Notes: generated from the sequence alone by a model not told the origin. A stretch of DNA of 64,000 nt from an uncultured Acidobacteriota bacterium (GCA_963827655.1 CAWHCF010000017.1:41584-105583), one strand, 5' to 3'. Numbered from the stretch's first letter, positions 11,178 through 55,488 are shown. A program made the numbers and translations.

Positions 11178-11440
11178 GGCGAATTCGTCAGGGCTTGGTT
11201 GCCTGGATCTCCAGCCCGGTGCAGATGTTGGCGCGGTGCGTCTGGAACCGTGCGGTAGCTGAAAAGAGTGCCTCGGCTATCCCCGGGCTGGTCTTGTATT
11301 CGGAGATCAGCTTGAGAATGCGCCGCTTGGCTGGGCGGCCAGGTCGTCGAGCCCAGGCCTATGCCGGTCACGACCGGCGCCGGGCGGGGGTCCGCTGGAT
11401 CAGGCAGGAGGAATGGCCGGGGCTGGCGTAGTAATCCCCG
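11178..11440 (-). pseudogene. Eroded C-terminal LuxR/NarL-type HTH of a response regulator
   Basis: Across frameshifts the sequence reads DYYASP...PGLDDL...KRRILKLISEYKTSPGIAEALF-SYRTV-QTHRANICTGLEI, matching the NarL HTH consensus. Confidence 0.6.
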
Positions 11441-11462
11441 GCACTCAAAGAAACGCTAAGGG

Positions 11463-13274
11463 CTACCGGTTTTGGGCCGCTGCGCTTTCCGTGCCGGCGT
11501 AATAGCCTCGTCGGGCATTGATGGAATAGTCGCTGTTCAGGCGACCGAAGCGGTCGTTGAGGCGAACCTCGATTCTGCGAAAGGTACTGTCACGGGTGCC
11601 GTTGCTGGATTGGTATCCCAGGGTGTAACGCAGCTTCAACCGCGATATGGCCGCGGCCATGGCCGCGTCGAGCGAGCCGGTTGTAGAAACGTCAATGATT
11701 TCTCCGCCCGTCTCCTCCGTAACTTTACTCACGGAACCGAACCCGCCCAACCAGAGGGGGACCCGCATCGTCACCGGCGCTGCCTCCCCCGCAGTTTTCA
11801 CGCTATAAATGACGGTTTCCGTTTCCATCGCGAATCGAATGAGCTGGTCCTGGCTCATGCGCGGCCTGGTGGTGGCCAGGTTGTCTGAGATCAGGATGAC
11901 CGCGCGGCGCTTGTCCGGCGCAACCAGGCTGAGGTAGTTTACCGCGTCGAAGAGCCCATCAACGATATTAGTGCCGCCGCCGGCGCGGATCTCAGAGATG
12001 CGATCGGCGATTCGCTGACGGTCGGTGGTCAAGTCTTCGAGCCGCTGCACCTCTCCGGCAAAGGTAAACAGGGCGACCTGGTCGCCACGCTTAAGCTGTG
12101 ACAGCGCCTTATAGGCGGCCTGGCGTATCTCGGACATGTAGGGGGCGACACTCCCGCTGCGATCAATCACGAGAGCGAGGGCCAGAGGCAGTTCATCGCG
12201 GGAGAAGGACTGGATCTCCTGTTCGATTCCGTCTTCAAAGATCCGAAAATCCGGCTGTTTCAAGTTCTCGAGAGGGCGGCCGCCCCGGTCGCGCACTATG
12301 GCGTCGACCATCACCAGCCGCACGTCGACTTTGAGCTTGTATCCGCCGGAGTCCCAGTCGGGCGGAGAAGGGAGAGGCGCACTCGAAGGCGGGATCGGCT
12401 GGCGGGATGCAGCCTCGGCCGGGGCAGGGCCAGGATCGGCGGATTCAGCTTCGTCCTTCGTGAAATCGGGAACGGGTTCTACCTTGTCCTCCACCGGTCG
12501 AGTATCGCGGGTCGACGGAAACCTGCTGAGAATCGGGCGCGACGGAGACGGTGACGGAGATGGTGAGGGCGGCGAAGTATTTTGAGCTATCTGAATTGAG
12601 CGCTGTACGGCGGTGACGGGAACGCTGAAAGCCTGGTCGAACATGGCTTCAAACAGCATGTCACGCGGCAAATCGAGATCGGGGCCGCGCTGAAGCAGGA
12701 TGCTGGCCAGACCGATCCCTGCCCCAATGGCTCCTCCGTAAGCAGCGCCTTTAACTCCTCCAGCCATGGTACCAAGGACGGCGCCCTGCAGTCCCCCTTG
12801 AGCCACGACCGTAATGCTCCCGCCGTTGCCGGCTTCACCTTTTAACTGAGGCTCGCCTTTCTTGGCTTTGTCTACCTGGGTCAAACCAGCTCGCGTCACG
12901 CTCGCTTTGAGGGGCAGGTTGGTGCCGTCGGGAAGGCGAACCTCCTCAAAACGCAACCTGAGCTCGGCGCGCCCCTTGACTCGACCCGGACGTTGAACCT
13001 TGCTGACGGTGGCAGTGACCGAGCTTCCGCTTGGAATCGCGATCTCGCCGCCGACTCGAACGGGTTCGATCGTTCTGAAGTGAACCCGGTCGCCCTGACG
13101 TGAGGTCTGGGTATGAAGCGACGTCTCGAGTTGCAAGATCAGCCTCTCACCCGAGGGGACCGCGAGGGAATCAGCCGAGGGGCCGCTCGACTGCGCCAGG
13201 AGAGATGAGAATGGAGCAACCATCGCTCCCAGCACAAGAATTGCCACGCTGAGGACTGGTTTTAGGTAAGTCAT
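11463..13274 (-). CDS. Secreted protein: TrbI/VirB10-like beta domain, glycine zipper, Pro-rich linker and Acidobacterial VWA domain
   Basis: N-terminal LETSLHTQTSRQGDRV...IPSGSSVTATV...GRVKGRAELRLRF; C-terminal VDVRLVMVDAIVRD, MIDAS DRSGS, ILISD, ETGG and YTLGY. Confidence 0.8.
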   Translation of the reverse strand: MTYLKPVLSVAILVLGAMVAPFSSLLAQSSGPSADSLAVPSGERLILQLETSLHTQTSRQGDRVHFRTIEPVRVGGEIAIPSGSSVTATVSKVQRPGRVKGRAELRLRFEEVRLPDGTNLPLKASVTRAGLTQVDKAKKGEPQLKGEAGNGGSITVVAQGGLQGAVLGTMAGGVKGAAYGGAIGAGIGLASILLQRGPDLDLPRDMLFEAMFDQAFSVPVTAVQRSIQIAQNTSPPSPSPSPSPSRPILSRFPSTRDTRPVEDKVEPVPDFTKDEAESADPGPAPAEAASRQPIPPSSAPLPSPPDWDSGGYKLKVDVRLVMVDAIVRDRGGRPLENLKQPDFRIFEDGIEQEIQSFSRDELPLALALVIDRSGSVAPYMSEIRQAAYKALSQLKRGDQVALFTFAGEVQRLEDLTTDRQRIADRISEIRAGGGTNIVDGLFDAVNYLSLVAPDKRRAVILISDNLATTRPRMSQDQLIRFAMETETVIYSVKTAGEAAPVTMRVPLWLGGFGSVSKVTEETGGEIIDVSTTGSLDAAMAAAISRLKLRYTLGYQSSNGTRDSTFRRIEVRLNDRFGRLNSDYSINARRGYYAGTESAAAQNR

Positions 13275-42980: not shown

Positions 42981-43429
42981 GGCGTTCCTCCCTAGTGTGT
43001 GCTTCTCCCGACTCTACGTCAGGCCGCGCGAACAATGCAATCCGAAATACCGAGGCGAGTGCGGCAGGCGAGACGGCGGACCATTTTCTGTTGGCCGCGC
43101 AGTCTGGTCACCCTGCAGGATCGCGCCTTTCCGGCTGCGGCCTGCAGGCCCGCCGGCGTTGTGACTCGCCCTCTCGTACCGCTCCAGGTCGGCATCGTCG
43201 CAGCACCGCGCCAGAGATCCCAGTGCGAGAGCGGTAGAATGCGGACTTATTCCTGCGCAGTCGCCCGACCTTCCTGACGTTCAAATCCCTTGAAATTCGG
43301 CACCCCGGTCCGTAGTATTCAGGCTCCGGGCGGTACGCGTGGGACTTGGACCAATGCTTTCGAGAAGCCTCAGGCAACCATGCGGAGAACCAGCAACCCG
43401 TCACCTCCGCTAATGCTGCTTTCGCATCC

Positions 43430-43506
43430 GTCCCCATCGTCTAGTCGGCCTAGGACACCGCGCTTTCAATGCGGCAACACGGGTTCGAATCCCGTTGGGG
43501 ACGCCA
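43430..43506 (+). tRNA. tRNA-Glu(TTC)
   Basis: gtcccca...gtctag...cctaggacaccgcg-ctTTCaa-tgcgg...gggttcgaatccc...tggggacgCCA; 77 nt. Confidence 0.96.
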
Positions 43507-44940
43507 GTTCTCGAATTTGTCTTTCCGCGCCAGGATGTCGAAGGGCTTATGGTATGTGGGACAAAGACTTCCGCGCGCGAAGGCGCAGTTCGATAGCAGG
43601 GTATTAAGCAGTCTTCGTCTTTCGGGGTGGTCCTGCCGTAAGTACAACTGGTGGGCTTTCTTGGCCAGTTCTAGAATACTGATGCCAAGCTCGTAATTCT
43701 TCTTAGTGGCATTTTCGTAGCGGGCCATCGAGAGCCTGATTTCCCTGAGTTCGCTCTGCCATTGTCTGGACTTCCTGGTCCAGAATTCCTCATCGATCTT
43801 TCCCGCTAGCTTATCGTCGTAGGCCCGATCCAATCGCTCCTGAACTGCTGCGTACTGAGTGTGGAGCTTCTCGATGGCCTCCCTATGGAATTTCTCTATG
43901 TCCCGGTGACTTTCCTGGAGGGCAACGCCAATCTTCGCCGCTAGATCGTCGGGGATCTCGATGGCTCGAACGATCTCACCAAGAAGATTCGACAGTCTGT
44001 CTTCGCGTATGTACGTGTTACCGCACTGCCCCTTGAATCCTGTGCAGTGGTAATAGACATAGCGGCTCTTCTTCTCTTCGGCGGTCATCGAGCAGCCGCA
44101 AAGCCCGCAGGTCAAAAGCCCAGAGAATGCGAAACTCCGCTTCGTTGCGCGAGGGCGACTTGAGCTCTTGAACACTTCCTGAACCGTGTCGAAAAGCTCC
44201 CTGGAAATAATGGGCGTGTGCTTGCCAGCGTGGATTCTACCTTTCCAGACAAACTCGCCGCAGTAAATCGGGTTATGCAAGATTCTGTGGATCTCAGATT
44301 TCGCCAGCCGTTTACCGGATCTGTGATGGAGAAGCCCAGAATTGCCGGCGATTTGCACTATTTGTTTGAGCGAATAGCTGCCGCTTGCGTAGGCCTCAAA
44401 CATCTTGGCGATCAGTGGTGCTTTCTTGGGATCAACCTCAATCACTCTGGTCTCCCGGTTGTTGACGTATCCTATCGGGGCGTAGCTGGGCCAATGTCCC
44501 TGCTCGGCCTTCTCACGCATTCCCTTGCTCGTCTCTTCCGACAGGTTGTCCAGAAAGTTTTTCGCAATCAACACCTTCAGCCCGTGCATGAGCTTCTCTG
44601 AGGAGCGCGACGTGGGAGAAATGATTGAGTTCTCTTTAACGAGCCTGACCTCGAGTCCAAGCTCATCAATGATCACATAGTCTTTGAAGTTTCGGTAAAG
44701 TCTGTCGGTCTTTTCCACAAGGATGATCCGACAGCCTGGATTCCGCCTTAGGAATGAAACCATTTTGCCGAAGGCAGTCCGACCTGACTGTTTGGCGGTC
44801 TCAACATCCACGAATTCCTCTAGAACGTTCAGGCTGTGATCGTCTGCATAAGCGAGCAGGAGCTTGAGCTGCGCAGGGATAGAGAAGCCCTCTTTCTCCT
44901 GCTCTTTGGAGGAGACCCGCGCATAAAGGACCGCCTTCAT
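43450..44940 (-). CDS. Large serine recombinase (integrase); the last 18 or so codons are antisense to tRNA-Glu
   Basis: YARVSS catalytic motif, SIPAQ, DRLYRN, APIGY, NPIYCG, H.PIIS.ELF, zinc ribbon CGLCG...YYHC...C and a coiled coil. Alternative start at 44973. Confidence 0.93.
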   Translation of the reverse strand: MKAVLYARVSSKEQEKEGFSIPAQLKLLLAYADDHSLNVLEEFVDVETAKQSGRTAFGKMVSFLRRNPGCRIILVEKTDRLYRNFKDYVIIDELGLEVRLVKENSIISPTSRSSEKLMHGLKVLIAKNFLDNLSEETSKGMREKAEQGHWPSYAPIGYVNNRETRVIEVDPKKAPLIAKMFEAYASGSYSLKQIVQIAGNSGLLHHRSGKRLAKSEIHRILHNPIYCGEFVWKGRIHAGKHTPIISRELFDTVQEVFKSSSRPRATKRSFAFSGLLTCGLCGCSMTAEEKKSRYVYYHCTGFKGQCGNTYIREDRLSNLLGEIVRAIEIPDDLAAKIGVALQESHRDIEKFHREAIEKLHTQYAAVQERLDRAYDDKLAGKIDEEFWTRKSRQWQSELREIRLSMARYENATKKNYELGISILELAKKAHQLYLRQDHPERRRLLNTLLSNCAFARGSLCPTYHKPFDILARKDKFENWRPQRDSNPCCRIESAVS

Positions 44941-44991
44941 GCGCCCCTTATCGGAATGTTCGTTCTTTGGCATGTTGGTCCTAAAGGGACT

Positions 44992-45234
44992 TCAAGGTTT
45001 GCGGCTAGAGCTTTGAGAGTAATCTATCATCAACGTTGGGGCATCGCGCAAGATTTTTTGGGGATCTGGAGTCGTCGGCAGTGGCGGAGTTTTCCTTTCT
45101 CTCTCATGCCATTCATAGAGCACTCGAAAGAACCCAATCAAATTGGGAGTGATGGTGAGCTCTGGTCCAGCTTCGGGGAGATCCGTCTGCCAGTTCGCAA
45201 CTGATTTCTTCTGATCTGATTGGCTGACTTTCAC
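44992..45234 (-). CDS. Small hypothetical protein immediately upstream of the recombinase
   Basis: 80-aa ORF, co-oriented, with the amphipathic helix NLIGFFRVLYEWHERE. Confidence 0.5.
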   Translation of the reverse strand: MKVSQSDQKKSVANWQTDLPEAGPELTITPNLIGFFRVLYEWHERERKTPPLPTTPDPQKILRDAPTLMIDYSQSSSRKP

Positions 45235-45310
45235 GAGGTTTTCCAGCGATCAGAGCTTCTCGTTTGCAGTAGCTGAGGCTGCTCCGTATTGAACTCCACG
45301 TGCTTCGAGT

Positions 45311-45604
45311 TCATACGGCGGCACAGATCCCCTTCAACTCGATCTCAAAGCCGAACGGGGAGAGATCGTGGTCATGGACCATATGAGCGTGCATTCGAAA
45401 GGAGCGTAGACGGTTTCGAATCTCCGGCCGCTCCCGGATTCGCTCCTTCAGCAGGTCCAGATTGATGGCGCACTCGTCAATCAGAACTAACTGAAGTAAG
45501 TCGTTATCGCGAGGAAATGGTTTCCAGATCCACGCCGCCGTCCACACTGCGGATGCCACGCAGTAGCTGACGAAAGACTTACCCTCGATGACGCGCCGTA
45601 ACAC
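45311..45604 (-). pseudogene. Probable N-terminal remnant of a type IV coupling protein (TraD/VirD4-like)
   Basis: MLRRVIEGKSFVSYCVASAVWTAAWIWKPFPRDNDLLQLV (a TM helix then PFP) recalls Acidobacterial coupling-protein N-termini. No ATPase domain follows. Confidence 0.4.
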
Positions 45605-45617
45605 CTTTGTCTTTTTC

Positions 45618-45884
45618 TCACTCGATCGTGGACTCGGAACTCACGGCTCCTTCGGTCTGGTGGTGCGGTGCTCTCTTGCCTGTGGTCCTGTTGCGCTTGA
45701 GCCAGGCCTGAAATTCCTTGTCTCGACCGAAGGTATAGCGAAGCGCCTGCTCGACTACATAGTGCTGGCCGCTATCTATAAACTCACAGTAACTCCGAAG
45801 CAGATCGCCCACGGCAGGATCGATCCGTATGTTGAGCTGGTCCTTCTTCTCAACCGGAGGTTCCTTTGTAATCAGAGCCACCAC
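45618..45884 (-). CDS. Small ribbon-helix-helix-like DNA-binding protein
   Basis: GAGGAG RBS then GTG; QLNIRIDPAVGDLLRSYCEFIDSGQHYVVEQALRYTF has a strand-helix-helix pattern. Confidence 0.6.
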   Translation of the reverse strand: MVALITKEPPVEKKDQLNIRIDPAVGDLLRSYCEFIDSGQHYVVEQALRYTFGRDKEFQAWLKRNRTTGKRAPHHQTEGAVSSESTIE

Positions 45885-45920
45885 TTTCTCCTCGACTTGC
45901 TGGTGCCTGTAATCGCATTT

Positions 45921-46000
45921 TGCTAGCAGCGATTGCCTCATCTCTGCTAGCAAGCTTTCGCGAAACCGTGCTAGCAAGGAATCCCGTAAGTCTGCTAGCA
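45921..46000. repeat. Four TGCTAGCA palindromes at exact 24-bp spacing
   Basis: Starts at 45921, 45945, 45969 and 45993. Confidence 0.9.
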
Positions 46001-46015
46001 AGATTCTCTCGTCTT

Positions 46016-46137
46016 GGGTCAAGGGACGGGCGGGAGCGACCCCCGGGAGTTCGAAGCAAAGCTTCAGAACGATCCGAGGGGTTTTGGGCGGCCCAGCCGC
46101 ACAAAAACCGGGGTCGCTCCCGCCCGTCCCTTGACCC
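46016..46137. repeat. Perfect 28-bp inverted repeat with a 66-bp spacer
   Basis: gggtcaagggacgggcgggagcgacccc (46016-46043) and ggggtcgctcccgcccgtcccttgaccc (46110-46137). Confidence 0.92.
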
Positions 46138-46289
46138 CGCGGCCCGCCCAGATCGGACTTGACGGCTTGTGAAGTCATTGTGAGAGCTTTGATTAGTATC
46201 GGGCGGGCACAGAACCACGAGCCAGAACATTGACCTGAACATCCAATGCGTTGGATGGTTCAGGCTTCTTCCGCCCAATCTGAGGTATT

Positions 46290-47110
46290 TCTGGCAGACG
46301 TACCAAAAAGGTCATAGTTTTCATCGAGCTTGTAGGTCAGAAAGTCCGCTGTGAGGGCACCAGAGCGATCGCTTCTTGGGAACAAAACAGCGATCACATG
46401 CACACCAGGGAGGTCGTCTTTCCTTTCGTCCGAAGGATTGAAAAAGCCGCGACACGAAAGGTTTTCTCGGCGGTAGGAAGTGCCTTTGTTCGTCGCGACG
46501 TGCACGATTCGGACTCCGCCGAGCGCGTCAAAAGGTTTGGTACTGCTTCAAAAAGTCTGAAATCCTGAAGTGGAAACGACACCCTCAGCGACGCAGCAAA
46601 AGGAGACCACAGGAGCTGAGAGCGACAATAAGTTCGGCCGGAATGAAGATCGGAACCTTGTCGAGAAATGAGATCGCGGATTGGACGCCGCTTGAGCGAT
46701 AGATCTTGGTGGGATTATCGATTCCGATGCCGCGCTCGCCCGTGAAATAGGCGATTTTTTCCTCCTCTTCTTGGTCCAGAAAGCGCTTCCGATTCGCGAG
46801 AACGAAGTCAGTGCCATCAGTTTGGCCTTCGCAACAAGCGCCGGTCGCGTGCGTCTGGGCGGTTGTTCGCTTGACCAATGGCACCGTAGAAGGACTGGGA
46901 GCATTGGTGGTAAACAAGGCTTTGCGTCGCCACCTGTACATTGGCCGTGGTCCTGGCCAGGATTTTCTCCACAAGTACGTCGTCACGTCAGCCGGTTTCT
47001 TACCGCGGAACTGGCAATACTGGCGCAGGACGAAGTAGCCGCTATGAGCCGTCGCCAGACAGAGAAACACAGCTTCTCGGTCTGTGTGTAGCCCAGGGAC
47101 TGGAGTGCTG
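46290..47110 (-). pseudogene. Multiply frameshifted hypothetical gene of an integrative element (possible replication/relaxation protein)
   Basis: Protein-like blocks in different frames: REAVFLCLATAHSGYFVLRQYCQF, VKAKLM-DFVLANRKRFLDQEEEKIAYF, FLDKVPIFI and FLTYKLDENYDLFG. Confidence 0.45.
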
Positions 47111-47427
47111 CGATGCGTTCCTGGTGTGTCACGATAGCGAGAGGATTCCCGGCGGTTTAATGCGGCATAAAAGTCAGGCAGACGCACCCTGCGAAATAAG
47201 ACGAGCGGCGCCTTGATCGCGACTCTGCAGCTTTATATTAGTAACGAAAAATGGGTAAATGTAACACGAGGGGTCAAAAAAACCCGAGACTGTAGTGCGG
47301 GCATCCTTGAGTCTTGACGTTTCTCGCGGGAGTTCGACGAAATGAAACACACTCAGAATAAATATTCCGAGCACGCTGATGGCCGAGGTTTTAGGACGGA
47401 CGAAATCTGTCGCCTTGCTCTCAAATC

Positions 47428-47757
47428 CTATCGGGTCGATCGAGTAGTTGTTTTCAGCTCTTTCGTGTTTGTCGTGCGGAAAGCTGATCGAATTGGATAG
47501 TGCGACGGATCGTCGAAACGAAAAACCAGAGACGAATCGGAACGTTGGTAATGACAGCTGTACATAAGGCGTATGGGTCTTGGTTCTGCGTCCACGAGTT
47601 CGCGGAAGTGAAGGTGTGAGTTGTCGAGGAAGTAAATGTTTCCTCGGATTAGTCCTGCATCGGGGCTGCGCTTGTCGAGTGCTTCGTTGTACGAGCTGAC
47701 GTAGGAAGATTCGCCGAGGGCTTCCAGCAAGCGTGAAATATAGTCTTCAATGGACAA
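47428..47757 (-). CDS. DUF6516 / TumE-like toxin family protein (C-terminus possibly degraded)
   Basis: IRGNIYFLDNSHLHFRE...YSCHYQRSDSSLVFRFDDPSHYP matches the YSYHYQ...FRYDNAPHH family pattern. Confidence 0.65.
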   Translation of the reverse strand: MSIEDYISRLLEALGESSYVSSYNEALDKRSPDAGLIRGNIYFLDNSHLHFRELVDAEPRPIRLMYSCHYQRSDSSLVFRFDDPSHYPIRSAFRTTNTKELKTTTRSTR

Positions 47758-47894
47758 TCTGGGCCCCATGAAGAGTTTCGTACTTTTTCCTGAGTACGGG
47801 TGTTCCTGGCGAATTCCGAATTTGCCGTCATTTCCATCCACGTGTCCAGGGCGAATTGTCGCAATCCTTCGATTTTCTGATCTTCAACGCGGCA

Positions 47895-48191
47895 TACGAT
47901 TGCGGAACGGATCAGTCGGCCGGGGGCGCATGAGGAGAGCACACAAGCCGGCGACGACGCGATCGCAGACGCGCAGATTGGGTGAACGGTGTCGGGAACG
48001 ATTCAGGATCAGGAGTTGCTGCTTGACCAGAACAGATTCGGCGACCACAGAACGTGCGCCGCCGGGACCCGCGAGTCGGGCAATCGTCGTAATGAGATGG
48101 ATGAAAGTACAGCTAGATCACGCATGAGAGAGCATCGTAACAGATCGCGAAATCCAAGAAATGCCCTAAAACTAGCAATTCGCCACCGACA
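47895..48191 (-). mobile_element. Truncated IS (IS481/IS3-like integrase-core transposase; left end and N-terminus only)
   Basis: End sequence TGTCGGTGGCGAATT, then MRDLAVL/FIHLITTIARLAGPGGARSVVAESVLVKQQLLILNRSRHRSPNLRVCDRVVAGLCALLMRPGRLIRSAIV, after which it stops. Confidence 0.65.
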
Positions 48192-48436
48192 AGATCCGCA
48201 GCGCGGCTCTTCAGGTACGTCACCGGTCGAATATCTTTCCTTAGATGCCCATGCATGGATCCTCGGCCCGAATTCGGTACCGAATTCGGACCGATTGCAA
48301 GCTTTCTGCCGTCCGCGAGAATTCGGTTGTTTCAGTCAGGCCGCTGCAAAGGTACTGCGGGCCCCGGCAGGACAACGCTCCAGGGTGCGACCGCGTTCCC
48401 CGGGCCGACAGCCTGGCCGCCCGGCGGCACGTTCAT

Positions 48437-49570
48437 CTACGGGCATACGGTGGTGCCGCGGCTCAGGACAGTCTTATCGCATTTTATTGTCCCGATGGCT
48501 ACCCCATCAAAAGTCACCCGGGTCCCAAAGCCGAGGTCCACATCGGTGCCATTGCGTGTGATGGCAGACGGGTTCGCTGGTATCGACACAAATGTCAGAC
48601 TGTCGGCGGCATCCGCCAGCACTCCGGTGTCGCTATTGTTTCGCACGGTGAGCCCGCCAACGACGAGAGCCCCGGACCCCTGACCGAAGTTCAAGCCTAT
48701 GGCGTTGTTCTCGATCAGGAACGTGCTGTTTCCAACAGGACTGACGAGTGTGCCGTCGACAACAAAGATCCCCGTCGGATTATTTGAGGCGCTGATTGTG
48801 CTGCGGGCGAACACCGTAAAGATTGAGCTGGCGATGACAATGCCGCCAGCACCGTTGTGGTGTGCGGTTATGCTGCTTCCCTGCGATGTCCCGAACCCGA
48901 AGATGGCCACCTGGCCGCTACCGGCAATCAAGCCGAATGCACCGTTGTTGCTTAATTGAACCGCCGCCCCGCGGATTTCCAGAGTCGACTGACCGTTGAC
49001 CTCTATGCCGTTCCCCACATTGTTAGTAATGTCGATCGCGTTCTTGAGGACGGCGCTGGAGCCTGTGAACACGTCCAGGCCGAAACCGTTGCGCCGCATT
49101 GTGCAACCGATAAGCTCGGCCGAGGAGCTGTCACCGACTGCAATACCTGTGGCGGCATTATCCTGCACGACGGTGTTGTGCACCGCAAAGGCCGCGCCGC
49201 GCATACCGAGAATCCCTTCTCCGGGACCGCGTTGTATGGTGAAGCCCTTAATAACCACGCCGCTAGCTCCATCTATGGTCACCACCCCGTCGAACTCGGT
49301 CGGCGCACCGCCACCTCCGTCGAGGATCGCGGCGCGTTGCCCGTCAAGCGTGATCCGGTCTGTAGTGATGGTCACTCTCTCACGGCAGGTGCCGCTGACG
49401 ATGATCGTGTCGCCCGCTTCGGCTTTGCTCAGAGCCTCGGCGATCGTTTTCCCCGCGCCGCAATCTACAACTTTCATACCGGGGGCAGCGACGGCCTCTG
49501 CAGAGGAGGCTGCCGCGACCAGCGCGATCATCAGCGCAAAAAGCTTCGTTCGTGCGTCTTGAGTTTTCAT
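48437..49570 (-). CDS. Secreted right-handed parallel beta-helix protein
   Basis: Signal peptide, VDCGAGKTIAEAL...GDTIIVSGTC.E and repeated NN..GI units. Confidence 0.85.
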   Translation of the reverse strand: MKTQDARTKLFALMIALVAAASSAEAVAAPGMKVVDCGAGKTIAEALSKAEAGDTIIVSGTCRERVTITTDRITLDGQRAAILDGGGGAPTEFDGVVTIDGASGVVIKGFTIQRGPGEGILGMRGAAFAVHNTVVQDNAATGIAVGDSSSAELIGCTMRRNGFGLDVFTGSSAVLKNAIDITNNVGNGIEVNGQSTLEIRGAAVQLSNNGAFGLIAGSGQVAIFGFGTSQGSSITAHHNGAGGIVIASSIFTVFARSTISASNNPTGIFVVDGTLVSPVGNSTFLIENNAIGLNFGQGSGALVVGGLTVRNNSDTGVLADAADSLTFVSIPANPSAITRNGTDVDLGFGTRVTFDGVAIGTIKCDKTVLSRGTTVCP

Positions 49571-49880
49571 GACTCTCTCCTTGGTCGGTTATCAATCATT
49601 TGCTGCAGCGGGGTAATCACTCCTTCATTATTTGGCATGTTTGTATTCTCCTTTTGTTCTTTAACGGCACCTGAATGGGGCCAGAATGTTTCAACCATTT
49701 CTTCTCTCAAGCTCGCGCCGAATGTTGCAATCGACGCCTTCACTTTCATTAACGGAAATGGCGGCGAAAGAGGATCATGCAAATCAAGGATTCGATTACC
49801 AAATGCAACCAAGCGGCGCGCAAGTGGTATAATGCTCGGCGTCTCAGCCTGAACTCATTGCACGAAAGGGGTGATCGCCC

Positions 49881-50447
49881 ATGACACCCTCGCCCCAAGA
49901 GATCTCGCAATTGCTCGTCGAGTGGAGTAACGGCGATCAGGCCGCGCACGACAAGCTGATGCCACTGGTCTACGACGAACTGCGCCGGATAGCGAAGCGT
50001 TACATGAGACGTCAACATCCTAGCCACACGCTGCAAACCACCGCGCTCATCCATGAAGCGTACCTCCGGCTGGTGAATCAACGAGAGGCACACTGGCAGA
50101 ACCGCACCCACTTCTTCGCCGTCGCGGCGCGTGTGATGCGCCAGATCTTGGTCGATCACGCCCGCTCTCGTCACAGCGCCAAGCGTGGGGCTGAGACACG
50201 CGCAATCGTTCCGGAGGAAGCTGCCGTCATTGCTCCGGAACGGGCCGCAGAGATGATCGCCCTCGACGAGGCGCTGCAGACGCTGACGGCCATCGACCGG
50301 CGTCAAGGCCGGATCGTGGAATTGCGGTACTTCGGCGGGCTGACCGTGGAAGAGACCGCCGAGATCCTCAAAATCTCGCCGATCACAGTCAAACGCGACT
50401 GGAGTCTGGCCAAAGCTTGGCTCCATCAAGAGCTCAAACTCAAATAG
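49881..50447 (+). CDS. ECF sigma factor, STK-associated type
   Basis: [40 protein letters not shown] and TVKRDW..AKAWL. Confidence 0.93.
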
Positions 50448-50512
50448 TCCCTTGTTGCTGATCCTTGTTCCTTTATCGGTTGCCACGGGCCATGGCCTGT
50501 GATCAAGAATCA

Positions 50513-53339
50513 ATGACGCCCGAACGTTGGCAGCAAATCGGCCGGCTCTATGACGCTGTCTTAGAGCACCCGCCAGAGGAGCGCCCTGCCTTTCTCGCTC
50601 AAGCTTGTGCTGGCGACGAAGACCTGCGCCGAGAGGTCGAAATGCTCATTGCCTCCTCCGAGCAAGCGGGCCGCTTCCTGGAGTCATCACCGGGGGATAT
50701 GGCGGCTGACTGGCTTGCCGAAAGCCAGGCTCGAGCCATGGTCGGGCGGAGCCTGGGCCCTTACCGGCTCATTTCCTTGCTCGGCGTGGGCGGAATGGGT
50801 CAAGTCTACCGCGCCCTGGATACGCGATTGGACCGCGAGGTGGCGGTCAAAGTCTTGGCCACACACCTGGCCCAGGATGCTGGGGCGGTGGCGCGCTTCA
50901 AAACCGAGGCCCGAGCTGTCGCGGCGCTCTCGCATCCCAACATTCTGGCGATTCACGATTTCGGGACGGAGCAGGGCGTCACCTTCGCAGTCATGGAATT
51001 GCTCGCCGGGGAGACGCTACGCAGTTGCCTGGCGCGCTCGGCTCTGGGCTGGCGCAAGGCAGTCGAATATGGGATGACGCTTGCTGACGGGCTGGCGGCG
51101 GCGCATACCAGAGGGATCATTCACCGCGACCTCAAGCCAGAGAACATCTTCCTGACCGAGGACGGTCAGGTGAAGATTCTCGACTTCGGCTTGGCGCGAA
51201 TAAAACGAGTAGTCTCCGCCCAAACGGCGGTCTCGACCTCGGTGATGCCTGTTGTCACTCAACCGGGCGTAGTGTTGGGGACGGTCGGCTATATGTCGCC
51301 GGAGCAGGTACGCGGGGAGGAGGCTGAGGCGCCCAGTGATATTTTCTCCTTCGGGTGTGTGCTTTACGAGATGGTGACGGGCGGTCGCGCCTTTGCGCGC
51401 GCGACGGCGGCGGAGACTATGGCAGCGATTCTGAAAGACGATCCGCCCCGTCTGGCAGAGGCCGGGCAAAGCATTCCCCCCGCTTTAGAGCAATCGATCG
51501 GGCGCTGTTTGGAGAAGCAGGCCGAGAAGCGCTATCAATCAGGGAGCGAACTGGCTCTTAATTTAAGGGCCACCGTAGGCGGGATCGGAGGAGCGAAGGG
51601 CTTGCCGTCGCGCTTTGTGGTCGGCTTTCGTCGAGCGGCGTGGGTTAGCGCCCTGTTGCTCGCGGCCTTAGTGGCGGCTCTGTGGTGGCAGCCCTGGCAG
51701 AAGCCGCAGCAGCCGGTCCAGCAACTCATTTCCACTTTCCCGGGGGCGCACACCGCTGCCAGTTTTTCACCGGATGGCAGCATGATCGCATTAATGATGC
51801 AGGATGGGGCGGGAGTGCCTCAGATCTGGATCAAGAACCTGGCCCAGGGTGATCCGATCCAGGTCACTTTCGATCCGGGTGGCGCTGGCCCGCCACGCTG
51901 GTCTCCCAAGAATGACCAGATCATTTTCAGCCGTGGCCGGGGCTGGCAATCCATATTGTCGGTCCCACCTCTCGGTGGCCGACTCCGGATTCTCATCGAT
52001 AGAGGTCATAATCGAGATGGCACACGCCATCCCGAAGGCGGCAGGAACCCGAGTTTTTCCTGGGACGGATCCCGGATTGTCTTTGAGAGAGCTGGTGAAC
52101 TATGGATCGCCAATGCCGACGGAAGTAATCAGCACAAGGTCGAAGGCCTAGTCCCAGGTAATGACCGAAGCGGTTCACTGGGGCCTACGTTTTCACCCGA
52201 TGGTTCTCTCATCGCCTATTTTCATTCCACACTCGGTCCAGTGGGTGAAATCTGGGTGATCTCCTCTCAGGGTGGAAAACCGCGCCAATTGACTTTCGAC
52301 AATGACCTTTGCGCAACGCCCGTCTGGACAGCGGATGGACGTCACATCATCTTTTCTTCCAGTCGGCGCGGCAGCCAGACTCTCTGGAAGGTGCCCGTGG
52401 GTGGCGGCGAGCCGCAGCCGGTGTTGGTGAGCGCGGGTGAAGACACGAATCCGGAAGTTTCCCGCGATGGCACAAGATTGATCTATACCACGGCGCGCAA
52501 TCATTACGCCTTGACTGTTCTAGACCCAGCAACCCAGCAGAAGCGGGAACTGAGGGAAGTCCGGGCCGACATGGCGGGGCCCGTCTTTTCTCCCGCGGGC
52601 GATAAGATTGCATTCTGCAGCAGTACAGTGAGTTGGCGATTCGCATTTGTTTACGATCGATGCGGATGGCCGCAACCTGACCCAGGTGACCCATGGCAAG
52701 GGGGAACGAAACATTTTCCCCCGCTGGTCTCGTGATGGGTCAGCCCTGTATTTCTATCAGGACCGTCCGGTTCCGTCTTTTCGAAAAATTTCGCTCCGAG
52801 GCGGGCAGAGTGTGGAGCTGGTTCGCGGTTGGAGTTTTTCGTCCCAATGGCTGGTGCATGTCGATCCTCAAGAGAAGCTCATTGCCCACTCCCAGATCGA
52901 GAACGGCATTGTCATCGGAACCTTTCTTCGGGAAATTGCTACGGGAAAGGAAACCCTGTTCCGCAAGCTCATGTATGAGCCTCAGTGGTCGAAAGACGGC
53001 CAATGGATTCTGGGCACTGAATTGAACTCTGGCGTCCGCAGCTCGTTCGGTGACATCGTGGTTTGCGCCGTGTCCACGGGTGAGTGCCGCAAAATAGCAG
53101 CCGATGGTAACCGTCCCATCTGGTCTCACGATGGTTCCCGGGTCTATTTCCACCGCTTCAAAGGAGGGAATCGAGATCTCTTCTCAGTAGCTAACGATGG
53201 GACCGATGAACGTCTGGTTGCCGAGCTCGGACCCTTCCCACCCTATAACCATCTCACGGACGTTTCCCGGAAGGGAGAGGTAGCCTACGTGCAATTTAAG
53301 GCAGGGAAACCAGAGCTGTGGATGATGGATTTGAGGTGA
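50513..53339 (+). CDS. Ser/Thr protein kinase with TM helix and TolB/PD40 beta-propeller (one +1 frameshift near 52633)
   Basis: MTPERWQQI, LGVGGMGQVY, VAVK, HRDLKPEN, DFGLA and YMSPEQ; repeated FSPDG/WS.DG continue in ORF 52647-53339. Confidence 0.9.
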
Positions 53340-53565
53340 GGAACCACCATGACCCGTACCGGCTTCCCGCTTGCGTCTCAAACGCTCCGGCGATTGAAAA
53401 CCCTATCATCTTCAACCCGCCGACGCGACGGCGAACTTCGTCCGTCCGAGCGAGCTCAGAAAGCCTGACGGCCGGATCCACGAACGGCGTCGCTGGGGCG
53501 GCCAGCCGCATACCGTCGACAACTGGTTTGTTTCAGTTCCTGTTTACGTATAGTAAACTTTCGCC

Positions 53566-53850
53566 GTGCGGGTAATCTCGCGGCGGCGCATCAATGAATT
53601 TTGCGAGCAGCATGCGGATGCGCTCCCTGGTCTTCACAACTGGTACAAGACCGTCCGTCGTGCCACTTGGAGGAACTTCGCAGAACTTCGTCAGGACTTC
53701 AATTCAGCGGATGTGGTTGGACGGCGGACGGTGTTCAACATTCATAAGAATGTTTATCGCCTGATCGCTCGGGTGAATTATCAGAAGCAGATCGTTTTTG
53801 TGTTGTTCATCCTCACACACAATGAATATAAAAAAGGGAAATGGAAATGA
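53566..53850 (+). CDS. higB: HigB family toxin (mRNA interferase)
   Basis: MRVIS, SADVVG.RTVFNI, YRLIARVNY and THNEY.K. Confidence 0.9.
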   Translation: MRVISRRRINEFCEQHADALPGLHNWYKTVRRATWRNFAELRQDFNSADVVGRRTVFNIHKNVYRLIARVNYQKQIVFVLFILTHNEYKKGKWK

Positions 53851-54254
53851 GGGCGCCAGCACGGATCAATAGAGAACGATATGGACGGCTTCTCCTCGAG
53901 AAACTGCCGCGGCCAATTCGGAACGATCGTGACCTGGAGCGTGCCGAAACAGAGCTCCTTGCGCTCGACGAGAAGGGGAATGATCTGACTCCCGAGGAAG
54001 GCGAGTACTTCGACATGCTCGCGGTCTTGATCGAGGATTACGAGAACAAGCACTACCCTGTCCCAACTGTTCCCGCAAGTAAGGCATTGAAGGAGCTGAT
54101 GTTCGAACGTGGACTTCGGCACAAGGACATCGCGGCAATCGTTGGCAACAAAGGGCTGACAACGGAGATTCTGGCTGGCAGGCGTGGCATCAGCAAGACC
54201 GTTGCGCGAAAGCTCGCCGAGCGCCTGCAGGTCCCGATAGACCTATTTCTCTGA
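53841..54254 (+). CDS. higA: HigA family HTH antitoxin
   Basis: LAVLIEDYENKHYP, LMFERGL and EILAGRRGIS; overlaps the toxin stop. Confidence 0.9.
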   Translation: MEMRAPARINRERYGRLLLEKLPRPIRNDRDLERAETELLALDEKGNDLTPEEGEYFDMLAVLIEDYENKHYPVPTVPASKALKELMFERGLRHKDIAAIVGNKGLTTEILAGRRGISKTVARKLAERLQVPIDLFL

Positions 54255-54467
54255 GGATCAGGAAGAGCTTCGCCCCTGGTGTCTTCGCCGTCGCAGACTG
54301 CCTAGGCGTAGGGCTTCACCCCGGCCACAGGTTTACGATAGACATTGGGACGGCCATCGTACTCGAAGAACTCAACTTCCAACGCTCTGGCCACATCCCA
54401 CCCATCAATGGCAAGGATGCGTCTTAACTTGGTACAATGCAACAACCCCACGAGGAGGACCCTGATC

Positions 54468-54719
54468 ATGCTGAAGACCGTGGATGGCGTTTATCGGAAT
54501 GGCAAGGTCGAGCTCAGCGAGATGCCGGATGCTGTCCAGGATAACACCCGCGTCCTCGTGACGTTTCTTGGGCCGGGTGCAATCGACCTGCGGAAGCGAG
54601 GGATAACTCCAGAGCAAGCAGCGGAACTGCGCGTGAGGCTAGCAGCCTTTGCCGAGGATTGGGATAGCCCCGAAATGGCTGTTTACGATGACTACGACTC
54701 TGCCAAAGCGCGGCTGTAA
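54468..54719 (+). CDS. Putative antitoxin (DUF104/AF2212-like N-terminus)
   Basis: MLKTVDGVYRNGKVEL...VLVTFL and acidic tail FAEDWDSPEMAVYDDYD; overlaps the PemK gene. Confidence 0.7.
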   Translation: MLKTVDGVYRNGKVELSEMPDAVQDNTRVLVTFLGPGAIDLRKRGITPEQAAELRVRLAAFAEDWDSPEMAVYDDYDSAKARL

Positions 54720-55053
54720 GCGCGGCGATGTCATTCTTGTGCTGTTCCCGCATTCTGACCTACGCACTGCCAAGCCGCGCCCGGCGTTAGTGGTCCAGGC
54801 CGATGAGCTTCAGAGCGGATTGCCCCAAGTCATCGTCGCTATGGTCAGCAGCAGGATCGCTCGGGCAAACCATCCAAGCCGGGTCATGGTGCAACGTTCG
54901 TCGGCCGAAGGAAGACGGTCCGGCCTTCTCGCCGACTCCGTCATAATGACCGACAACTTGGCGACGATCGCCGAAGTAGCTATTGACCGGGTCATTGGGA
55001 ATTTGCCCATGACTGAAGTCGATACGGCCTTGCGACACACGCTGGGCCTTTGA
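54688..55053 (+). CDS. PemK/MazF family toxin
   Basis: RGDVILVLFPHSD...KPRPALVVQ, SGLLADS and VDTALRHTLGL. Confidence 0.9.
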   Translation: MTTTLPKRGCKRGDVILVLFPHSDLRTAKPRPALVVQADELQSGLPQVIVAMVSSRIARANHPSRVMVQRSSAEGRRSGLLADSVIMTDNLATIAEVAIDRVIGNLPMTEVDTALRHTLGL

Positions 55054-55075
55054 ATGGCATCCCTTTCCTCGTGCG

Positions 55076-55345
55076 TCAGGCCACTTGGATAGCCCAGTTG
55101 CGGAACTCGTCCACTATGGGACGCCAGTTCTCGAATTTGTCTTTCCGCGCCAGGATGTCGAAGGGCTTATGGTATGTGGGACAAAGACTTCCGCGCGCGA
55201 AGATACAGTTCGATAGCAGGGTCTTAGTGGCATTTTCGTAGCGGGCCATCGAGAGCCTGATTTCCCCGAGTTCGCCCTGCCATTTCCTGGACTTCCCGGT
55301 CCAGAATCCCTCATCGATCTTTCCCGCTAGCTTACCGTGCGCCAA
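55076..55345 (-). pseudogene. Second copy of the recombinase 3' end, with an in-frame 99-bp deletion and an alternative C-terminus (attP-like junction)
   Basis: 55118-55338 matches 43498-about 43818 apart from about 10 substitutions and loss of 43603-43701. It ends KFENWRPIVDEFRNWAIQVA. Confidence 0.85.
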
Positions 55346-55488
55346 TCGTTAGTGATAGGTTCAATTCGAACTGGCACTATCATCTTCGTCCCACGCGGTC
55401 TCCCTGTCGCGCTGCAGATCGCCACAAGAGCACCACTGCCCGACGTGCAGCTGTACCACACAGAGGAATGCGATCACCATCCGTTGCT

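Follow-up and report, generated by a model that had tools for sequence, protein, structure and literature searches.

Within a window of 64,000 nucleotides from an uncultured Acidobacteriota bacterium (GCA_963827655.1 CAWHCF010000017.1:41584-105583; all positions below are counted from its first letter), an island measuring 11.6 kb between its cores is integrated at a tRNA-Glu gene, and the gene for its large serine integrase runs across the attachment (att) site by which the island is joined to that tRNA. The enzyme thus has one C-terminus in the integrated state and would have another in the free state, and a survey of homologues in genomes, metagenomes and phages establishes that such a tail swap, dependent on the state of integration, is the norm in a very large family of serine integrases that target tRNA genes. 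In our assessment it is rather probable that the account holds as a whole, namely that the gene spans the element's own site (attP), that one arm of that site (P) mimics the T-loop of the target tRNA, and that integration removes a tail under selection.

An integrase gene that crosses its own attachment site

An initial annotation of this DNA had proposed that the integrase gene spans its own att site and so acquires two state-specific C-termini, and the two reading frames on which that proposal depends are present at 43450-44973 and 55076-55345. The junction at the tRNA end (attL) consists of the following features:

43430-43506, plus strand: tRNA-Glu(UUC) gene, the B arm of attL (ARAGORN)
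43450-44973, minus strand: large serine integrase in its attL (integrated) form, 507 aa (open reading frame and Pfam domains)
43498-43506: left core GGGACGCCA, comprising the acceptor 3' strand, the discriminator and CCA (9-mer search)
43507-43531: P' arm of the attachment site, within the integrase coding sequence (...ARKDKFEN; sequence reading)

The tRNA-Glu gene (anticodon ttc) carries an encoded CCA. Whole-genome ARAGORN analysis returned 46 tRNAs, among them a single Glu(ttc) on contig C17 and a single Glu(ctc) on contig C40, and the full-length integrase is likewise present once in the whole genome, both counts being those of an assembly that is 90% complete. The integrase open reading frame (ORF) crosses the core and stops inside the antisense tRNA-Glu, so that the integrated enzyme ends ...KFENWRPQRDSNPCCRIESAVS; its W-R-P codons, TGG CGT CCC, are the reverse complement of the tRNA end GGGACGCCA, and the last 15 residues, QRDSNPCCRIESAVS, which follow ...KFENW-RP, come from the antisense tRNA.

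Pfam identifies Resolvase (PF00239, residues 14-161, E 2.4e-21), Recombinase (PF07508, E 3.9e-17) and Zn_ribbon_recom (PF13408, E 8.1e-12) domains in this protein. Within its YARVSS motif, residues R19, V20, S21 and S22 show little or no variation in an alignment (A2) in which Cys289, Cys292, Cys294 and Cys310 are invariant, and an AlphaFold2 model of a homologue 40% identical to the island integrase places long helices (335-438) inside the zinc-ribbon domain. Judged from its sequence and from the model of this homologue, the island integrase has the make-up of a large serine recombinase, with a catalytic serine domain followed by Recombinase and zinc-ribbon domains and a coiled-coil insertion.

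Crossover is inferred to occur at or beside the CC of CCA, a placement that rests on the 9-bp limit of junction identity together with the centre of symmetry of the site described below, and it would thus leave the host tRNA intact, which matters for the sole tRNA-Glu(UUC) gene found in the assembly. At 15-19 nt from the centre, the P' arm bears the CGGAA motif in inverted form. When the island is integrated, the ORF passes from the P' arm, its own 3' coding region, over the core and into the antisense tRNA and so acquires a 15-aa tail; in a circular element the same ORF would continue into the P arm and end IVDEFRNWAIQVA.

The far junction and a second, decayed integrase copy

At the far end of the island the same core is joined to an alternative arm, as the initial annotation had it, but the junction is not a plain attR, and approximately 226 nt from the decayed 3' end of an integrase lie beyond the core:

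55076-55117, minus strand: P arm of an attP-like junction, with the alternative tail IVDEFRNWAIQVA at 55079-55117 and the stop codon at 55076-55078 (frame reading)
55118-55126: right core GGGACGCCA (9-mer search)
55127-55338, minus strand: decayed 3' fragment of a second integrase copy outside the far core, approximately codons 385-496 minus 33 codons (repeat alignment, translation, whole-genome integrase search)

The minus-strand frame at 55076-55345 ends ...KFENWRPIVDEFRNWAIQVA and at the core reads KFENWRP-IVDEFRNWAIQVA; translation of both junctions gives the tail lengths originally claimed, 15 aa from the antisense tRNA and 13 aa from the far arm. The attP anatomy that had been suggested for this site, including an imperfect inverted repeat, is also present: the best symmetric arms match at 9 of 12 positions around a centre at 55124, where the first C of CCA stands. 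Since this score was equalled in 56 of 2000 shuffles, the inverted repeat is real but modest. About 20 nt past the end of the integrase remnant, at 55358-55374, there is in addition a near-palindrome, GGTTCAATTCGAACTGG, whose reverse complement starts CCAGTTCGAA and resembles the P arm CCAGTTGCGGAA.

The repeat shared by the two ends exceeds the core. Positions 43498-43606 and 55118-55226 are 96% identical, and a second block, 43701-43817 against 55222-55338, is 94% identical. Segment 55127-55338 thus corresponds to a shortened integrase 3' end, with an in-frame deletion of 99 nt and 11 base differences; when the two translations are compared, at least 6 of approximately 8 changed codons change the residue. 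Because of this deletion and the mostly residue-changing differences, the second copy is, as far as its sequence tells, a pseudogene, and its presence beyond the far core means that the right junction has the attP-like order P-core-P' rather than the order P arm, core, B' arm that defines a canonical attR. The fragment probably remains from a related element that was older or lay in tandem; the P-core-P' layout would result either from homologous recombination within int or from a dimer that integrated and then underwent a deletion. If the two cores recombined, tRNA-Glu would be left with the decayed integrase fragment behind it.

It is quite possible, if short of an even chance, that the copy in the window is a fossil, derived from a tandem or related earlier element by one of these two routes and locked in beside an integrase pseudogene, so that the attP-form isoform is never made here. 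In addition to the deletion and the residue-changing differences, such a history is favoured by the finding that exact copies of GGGACGCCA number only two in the window, with no further attR seen, and by comparable remains elsewhere. Integrase 3' remnants are rare without being unique to the window, with hits at 3 of the 353 flanks tested around 211 loci. One of the three, in a metagenome-assembled genome of the Kofleriaceae (locus L041), is a far-end, same-strand remnant like that of the window, 80% identical over 99 aa, bounding an island of approximately 10 kb in tRNA-Asn (layout coordinates 997-1293 against 11431-11539), and in the relative G007 (locus L097, contig C73) tRNA-Glu is followed by approximately 63 nt of decayed integrase 3' end, reading ...KQPFEILVPKDEIQRW, with no integrase beyond, which appears to be the scar of a lost island from the same family. 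The fossil explanation is countered by the left integrase, which is intact with all three domains, by integrases 88-93% identical to it in other metagenomes, by parts of the island in sequencing runs from 17 studies, and by the 109-nt direct repeat itself, which would still permit loss through homologous recombination.

The initial annotation had also raised the doubt that the copy at 55.1 kb might be misassembled. Although a 109-nt repeat at 96% identity could in principle mislead an assembler, an artefact of this kind is highly improbable: the far copy has substitutions of its own and the 99-nt deletion, features that collapse of a repeat is unable to produce, and an 851-nt contig (X1) from another soil metagenome, approximately 97% identical, bridges 54398-55162. 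As this contig joins arm, core and integrase, their contiguity is not peculiar to the source assembly. One contig from sequencing run X2 joins 54325 to 55070 via 32 other nucleotides, with 54326-55069 replaced and the P arm kept, indicating that a related strain has an island without the MazF-like module but with the P arm. A second contig from that run matches 54942-55126 and beyond this point has a further 80 nt without resemblance to the window, which could be either the canonical attR of another strain or a more divergent integrase. Relatives were also inspected for an empty site, and in these the tRNA alone is conserved while the flanks differ in every genus. When exact repeats were used to look for the far ends of 80 genome loci, most of the matches were chance 9-mers, and the result was set aside.

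tRNA overlap across the integrase family

The island integrase belongs to a large family, with 6002 homologous proteins at E<=1e-20 among 8000 scored candidates and 2708 representatives of 50%-identity clusters at E<=1e-30. Record titles cover Acidobacteriota, Alphaproteobacteria, Zixibacteria, Omnitrophota, Planctomycetota, Gemmatimonadota, Myxococcota and others. Among the top 120 homologues the predominant tail is W-x3-[RLW]-DSN-[PQS]..., that is, an antisense acceptor stem plus T-arm. The expectation that homologues would routinely adjoin tRNA genes and carry antisense-tRNA tails is borne out by the genome and metagenome loci, where tails were scored as tRNA-type either from an ARAGORN call or with our own regular expression for antisense T-loop residues:

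Genome loci: antisense tRNA at the integrase 3' end in 56/80; Asn, Gln, Asp, Glu, Ser, His, Pro and Met (ARAGORN)
Metagenome loci: antisense tRNA at the integrase 3' end in 42/80; adds Arg, Ile and Trp (ARAGORN)
Viral loci with the C-terminus aligned: antisense tRNA at the integrase 3' end in 8/51; adds Leu and Ala (ARAGORN)
Genome ORFs with a stop: tRNA-type tails in 61/76 (ARAGORN or regular expression)
Metagenome ORFs with a stop: tRNA-type tails in 64/74 (ARAGORN or regular expression)

At least 13 tRNA types are represented at integrase 3' ends in the three ARAGORN sets. Most sampled members of this large serine-integrase family, from many phyla as well as phages, therefore target tRNA genes, in contrast to a statement of 2015 that serine integrases are not known to do so. 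The integrated tails are dictated by the tRNA and are arbitrary, varying from 2 to more than 25 residues; the shortest have 2-3 residues after the W, as in WLRG followed directly by the stop.

Free forms were sought among viral contigs. An earlier scan with a single protein had found 1 locus, and the scan of IMG/VR was redone with alignment A2, yielding 77 loci, of which 26 were dropped for a query match ending before residue 440. Six of the 51 retained loci run off the end of the locus, 18 have tRNA-type tails and 27 have other tails, and several of the latter sit mid-contig. In three of the four lineages checked, the tail is followed directly by an endolysin gene, and int is preceded by a gene for a CI-like repressor or by replication genes; this lysis-attP-int-repressor order is classical for a temperate phage that is not integrated. 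In five phage lineages both states were found, and alignment of the two forms shows that the DNA diverges a few bases past the tRNA end. The free-form tails of phages comprise 25-45 residues and thus extend far beyond the attP half-site. Use of the 89-aa far-end fragment of the window as a query for longer proteins gave 4 hits and zero new free forms. As a separate observation, reverse-transcriptase genes lie 2-3 kb past the integrase tail in two free-form lineages (L112, 6243-7379; L119, 6808-7401) and might belong to diversity-generating retroelements.

A T-loop-like motif displaced by five base pairs

The free-form tails start ...D.FR[NT], as in IVDEFRN (window), LVDVFRT, FGDTFRT, VDLRTF and NEVRTY. 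The initial annotation had predicted a conserved W....D.FRN tail, and an in-frame motif of this kind does exist in free forms; what recurs, however, is best read as a mimic of the T-loop at the level of DNA and not as a conserved peptide. Specifically, the P arm of the phages contains a hexamer, T[CA]GAAC, whose distance from the shared block exceeds that of the antisense T-loop TCGAAC in attL by exactly 5 nt. This +5 shift was observed in 11/11 comparisons of free and integrated phage forms (8 + 3), which represent five lineages and are not independent pairs. Locus L041, whose remnant is chromosomal and has no phage pair, was excluded from these comparisons, and the +5 motif is not visible by eye in its far arm.

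In the window the motif is imperfect, with TTCCGCAAC in place of TTCGAAC and a start shifted by +4. When the two arms are compared without gaps, CGAATCCCG in the tRNA (43486-43494) occupies the positions 10-18 nt from the centre and the T-loop-like motif CGGAACTCG in the P arm (55101-55109) those 15-23 nt from it, and 6/9 bases are identical at a displacement of +5.

A displacement of the same size has been described for the Listeria integrase, whose zinc-ribbon-domain (ZD) motif occupies bp 16-24 in attP and bp 11-19 in the host site, attB (Rutherford 2013, PMC3783163). The att site of the window has an anatomy of this kind, with imperfect dyad symmetry and a putative ZD motif that, in the comparison without gaps, is placed 5 bp nearer the centre in attB. 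We infer that the T-arm of the tRNA serves as the attB ZD motif and that the P arm mimics the T-arm at attP spacing, an arrangement that would explain both the targeting of tRNA genes and the conserved [FVLI]-R-[TN] of free-form tails. Because a displacement of 5 nt shifts the reading frame, the D-S-N encoded by GAT TCG AAC becomes x-R-T or x-R-N, which is the peptide motif observed. The FRN motif is therefore best explained at the DNA level, with no evidence of peptide conservation. A T-loop mimic located 5 bp further out in attP constitutes a simple and testable targeting rule, and such a rule could predict attP/attB pairs for thousands of uncharacterised integrases.

The free-form tail and its possible roles

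Two lines of evidence bear on the part of the tail that lies beyond the DNA-constrained stretch. Firstly, the ratio of nonsynonymous to synonymous divergence (dN/dS), which the initial annotation had put forward as a check on the alternative arm, was calculated in phages. Over the last 22-28 codons it ranges from 0 to 0.73 (16 phage pairs, 4 lineages), as compared with 0.08-0.22 in the gene body, at a synonymous divergence similar in tail and body, so that the distal part of these tails looks protein-coding; each pair offers 13-17 synonymous sites and the pairs are mutually related, which is to be counted with the reservations gathered below. Secondly, the degron-like ending remarked upon in the window has many counterparts, as free-form tails often end ...VA, ...AA or ...CA. 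Endings of the form [AVCLIS]A are distributed as follows:

Viral non-tRNA tails: 19/27 (11 of 19 distinct endings)
Viral tRNA-type tails: 1/18
Genome tRNA-type tails: 1/61
Metagenome tRNA-type tails: 3/64
Genome 'other' tails, mostly degenerate-looking: 0/15
Metagenome 'other' tails: 2/10 (...FIAA, ...ARAA)

The distinct viral endings include ...LKLVA, ...LDLAA, ...KKCA, ...LLKVA and ...KLKAA, and further ...LVLVA, ...LLDVA, ...FDFAA, ...KYAAA and ...LEKAA. Cluster representatives with a length of 470 aa or more number 135; the antisense motif is absent from 66, of which 11 end in [AVCLIS]A. Ends of the ...LAA and ...LVA types are ClpXP signals, and the tag encoded by the transfer-messenger RNA (tmRNA) of the host, ADTQLALAA, ends ...LALAA. 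Given the resemblance to ssrA-like ends, it is plausible that the C-terminus removed upon integration acts as a protease tag.

The homologue modelled with AlphaFold2, mentioned above, is a free-form phage integrase, and its structure was predicted from a 20-sequence alignment (mean predicted local distance difference test score, pLDDT, 81.9; predicted template-modelling score, pTM, 0.39). The model contains the expected domains and a low-confidence linker at residues 479-489, which is the position of the crossover, followed by helices at 489-501 and 504-512, with the last 5 residues as coil.

Should these indications be taken together, the free-form tail past the DNA-constrained stretch would be a peptide under selection whose ssrA-like end is exposed (...LAA, ...LVA, ...KCA; ...QVA in the window), and integration would cut off this degron or regulatory tail. 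An incoming or excised element would accordingly yield a short-lived or differently active integrase (Int-P), and a resident island a tail-swapped one (Int-L). By analogy with mycobacteriophage BPs, Int-P would carry the tag and persist only briefly once the element had entered or been excised, and resident Int-L would lack it. The more specific proposal, that this very large and apparently undescribed clade reads the universally conserved tRNA T-arm as its attB ZD motif and carries in the free form an ssrA-like degron or regulatory helix that is cut off by integration, such that state-dependent stability or activity adds a layer of directionality without or beside a directionality factor, is offered tentatively and must be considered unlikely in its full detail. 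If the tail swap does alter stability or activity, it would constitute a self-contained switch telling the enzyme whether its element is free or integrated, and a switch of this kind would bear on directionality, lysogeny frequency and the design of integrase tools.

A simpler possibility, rather doubtful but a real contender, is that the tails are a neutral by-product. With int and attP forming a compact module that has the att site at its 3' end, the ORF would merely read on to the next chance stop, and the tails would have no function. Integrated tails are indeed set by the tRNA whatever their length, DNA constraint alone suffices to explain the proximal free-form motif, the window's own tail is short, and a trivial reading of this sort has been raised for dsiB of Dehalococcoides (McMurdie 2011, PMC3146451). 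Chance extension accounts less readily for phage tails of 25-45 aa with a distal dN/dS below 1 at synonymous divergence like that of the gene body, for ...[AVC]A ends reached in at least 11 distinct tail sequences, or for free-form tails that are predicted to be helical with a free end.

It is also conceivable, if improbable, that the tail is a control module rather than a degron, contacting the coiled-coil, the zinc-ribbon domain or a directionality factor, with the attP-made integrase favouring integration and the tail-swapped form favouring or permitting excision. The two predicted helices, which follow a flexible linker right behind the zinc-ribbon domain, would suit such contacts, and in phage Mx8 an altered integrase changes site preference (review, PMC6070905). 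A module of this type sits poorly with the short tails of the window's own clade, in which there is no conserved helix, and with tail sequences that are very different between lineages.

To return to selected, state-specific tails, several observations weigh against that account. With regard to the window, the support for a degron or regulatory tail is thin: the tail does end ...QVA, and beyond the DNA-constrained stretch it comprises only 6 residues, WAIQVA, while the one other free-form tail with WRP (P0207) ends ...RAVI. The pair of 9-mer cores is weak evidence by itself, at least 2 matches being found in 20/100 shuffles. Canonical attL x attR excision of the island is uncertain; as the right junction is not a canonical attR, this copy may never be excised by the integrase, and no contig joining 43.5 kb to 55.1 kb, as expected of a circle or an empty site, was present among the Logan contigs. 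Across the family, 8/27 viral tails, 8/10 metagenome 'other' tails and 15/15 genome 'other' tails, many of them degenerate-looking, do not end in [AVCLIS]A, and the arbitrary and sometimes very short integrated tails indicate that the enzyme clearly tolerates tail loss.

Comparison with known systems

The closest precedent of a tail-swapped serine integrase is DsiB of the Dehalococcoides ssrA islands, the gene for which always overlaps attL, with its stop in ssrA or in the neighbouring island; its authors speculate that DsiB may be fully functional only on the circle (McMurdie 2011, PMC3146451). Compared by description, the two systems share a large serine recombinase adjoining attL at the 3' end of a tRNA-like gene, and the ssrA islands also occur next to each other. 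They differ in that DsiB targets the tmRNA gene (ssrA) and the island integrase tRNA-Glu, in that a second, small recombinase, DsiA, is present there, whereas no second serine recombinase was found in the island with Pfam, and in that an attP-form tail, T-loop mimicry and a degron-like end are not described in the parts of that paper drawn upon here.

In phage Mx8 (IntP/IntX), attP likewise lies inside int, and integration makes a new 3' end and hence an altered integrase (review, PMC6070905). The Mx8 enzyme is a tyrosine recombinase, unlike the protein with serine recombinase domains analysed here. Reportedly, a much larger C-terminal part is replaced in Mx8 Int.

In BPs, attP is located inside the repressor ORF, and integration removes a C-terminal degradation tag; the Int of BPs-type phages is itself C-terminally tagged, and a change of one residue stabilises Int and raises integration (Broussard and Hatfull 2013, PMC3694055). 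BPs Int is a tyrosine recombinase whose own tag is unaffected by integration (PMC3694055). The common feature is an attP within an ORF and a C-terminus replaced upon integration, as found here in the window and in five phage lineages, but the gene so split is the repressor in BPs and the integrase here, where the tag is putative.

Archaeal integrases of the SSV1 type also have attP inside the integrase gene and a tRNA target; these are tyrosine recombinases, and integration splits the gene into two large parts, without a short tail swap. To our knowledge, canonical phage serine integrase genes (A118/LI, Bxb1, phiC31) neither span attP nor target tRNA genes. With these enzymes the island integrase shares its domain order and short att sites with imperfect dyad symmetry, as well as, with the Listeria integrase, a ZD motif located 5 bp nearer the centre in attB than in attP (Rutherford 2013, PMC3783163).

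The initial annotation had regarded the arrangement as a candidate for an undescribed system, and in part this view can be upheld. Beyond DsiB, Mx8 and BPs, no description of tRNA-targeting serine integrases with swapped tails was found in the literature searched, which did not extend to subscription journals and supplements; the principle of a tail altered by integration, however, has precedents in those three systems. The novelty lies in how widespread the arrangement is, in the use of tRNA genes as targets, in a T-loop mimic placed at attP spacing and in ssrA-like ends that recur among free forms.

Island cargo and surroundings

The remainder of the island is made up of cargo:

44992-55053: island cargo (Pfam, PHROGs, composition)

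Pfam matches within it identify an ECF sigma factor, a Ser/Thr kinase with PD40 repeats, HigB with a helix-turn-helix partner, a MazF-like toxin, a TumE-like ORF and a beta-helix protein, alongside small ORFs without a family match. Neither a phage structural gene nor a relaxase was detected among the island ORFs scanned with Pfam and PHROGs, and the same searches identified no directionality factor among the small ORFs; with PHROGs, 1/11 island ORFs matched, to a transcriptional regulator family. The guanine-plus-cytosine content is 52-62% in the island versus approximately 65% upstream of the tRNA.

Several minor features were also recorded. Within the island, units containing TGCTAGCAAG occur three times in direct orientation upstream of int (45921-46005), 24 nt apart, and are directly followed by a perfect 28-nt inverted repeat with a 66-nt spacer (46016-46137); together these resemble a set of iterons or an operator-origin region. 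A dispersed short repeat occupies approximately 43085-43258, directly upstream of the tRNA, and is found in at least 8 other genomic places at 72-88% identity, and also in many places of the relatives G010 and G008. A further relative (L094, G017:C54) has the 3' half of tRNA-Glu twice, a 44-nt exact copy being found 4.2 kb away from the complete gene. The ORF adjoining the tRNA at that locus is one that we take, by eye, to resemble a tyrosine integrase; if it is one, the same tRNA is used by the other class of integrase in a relative.

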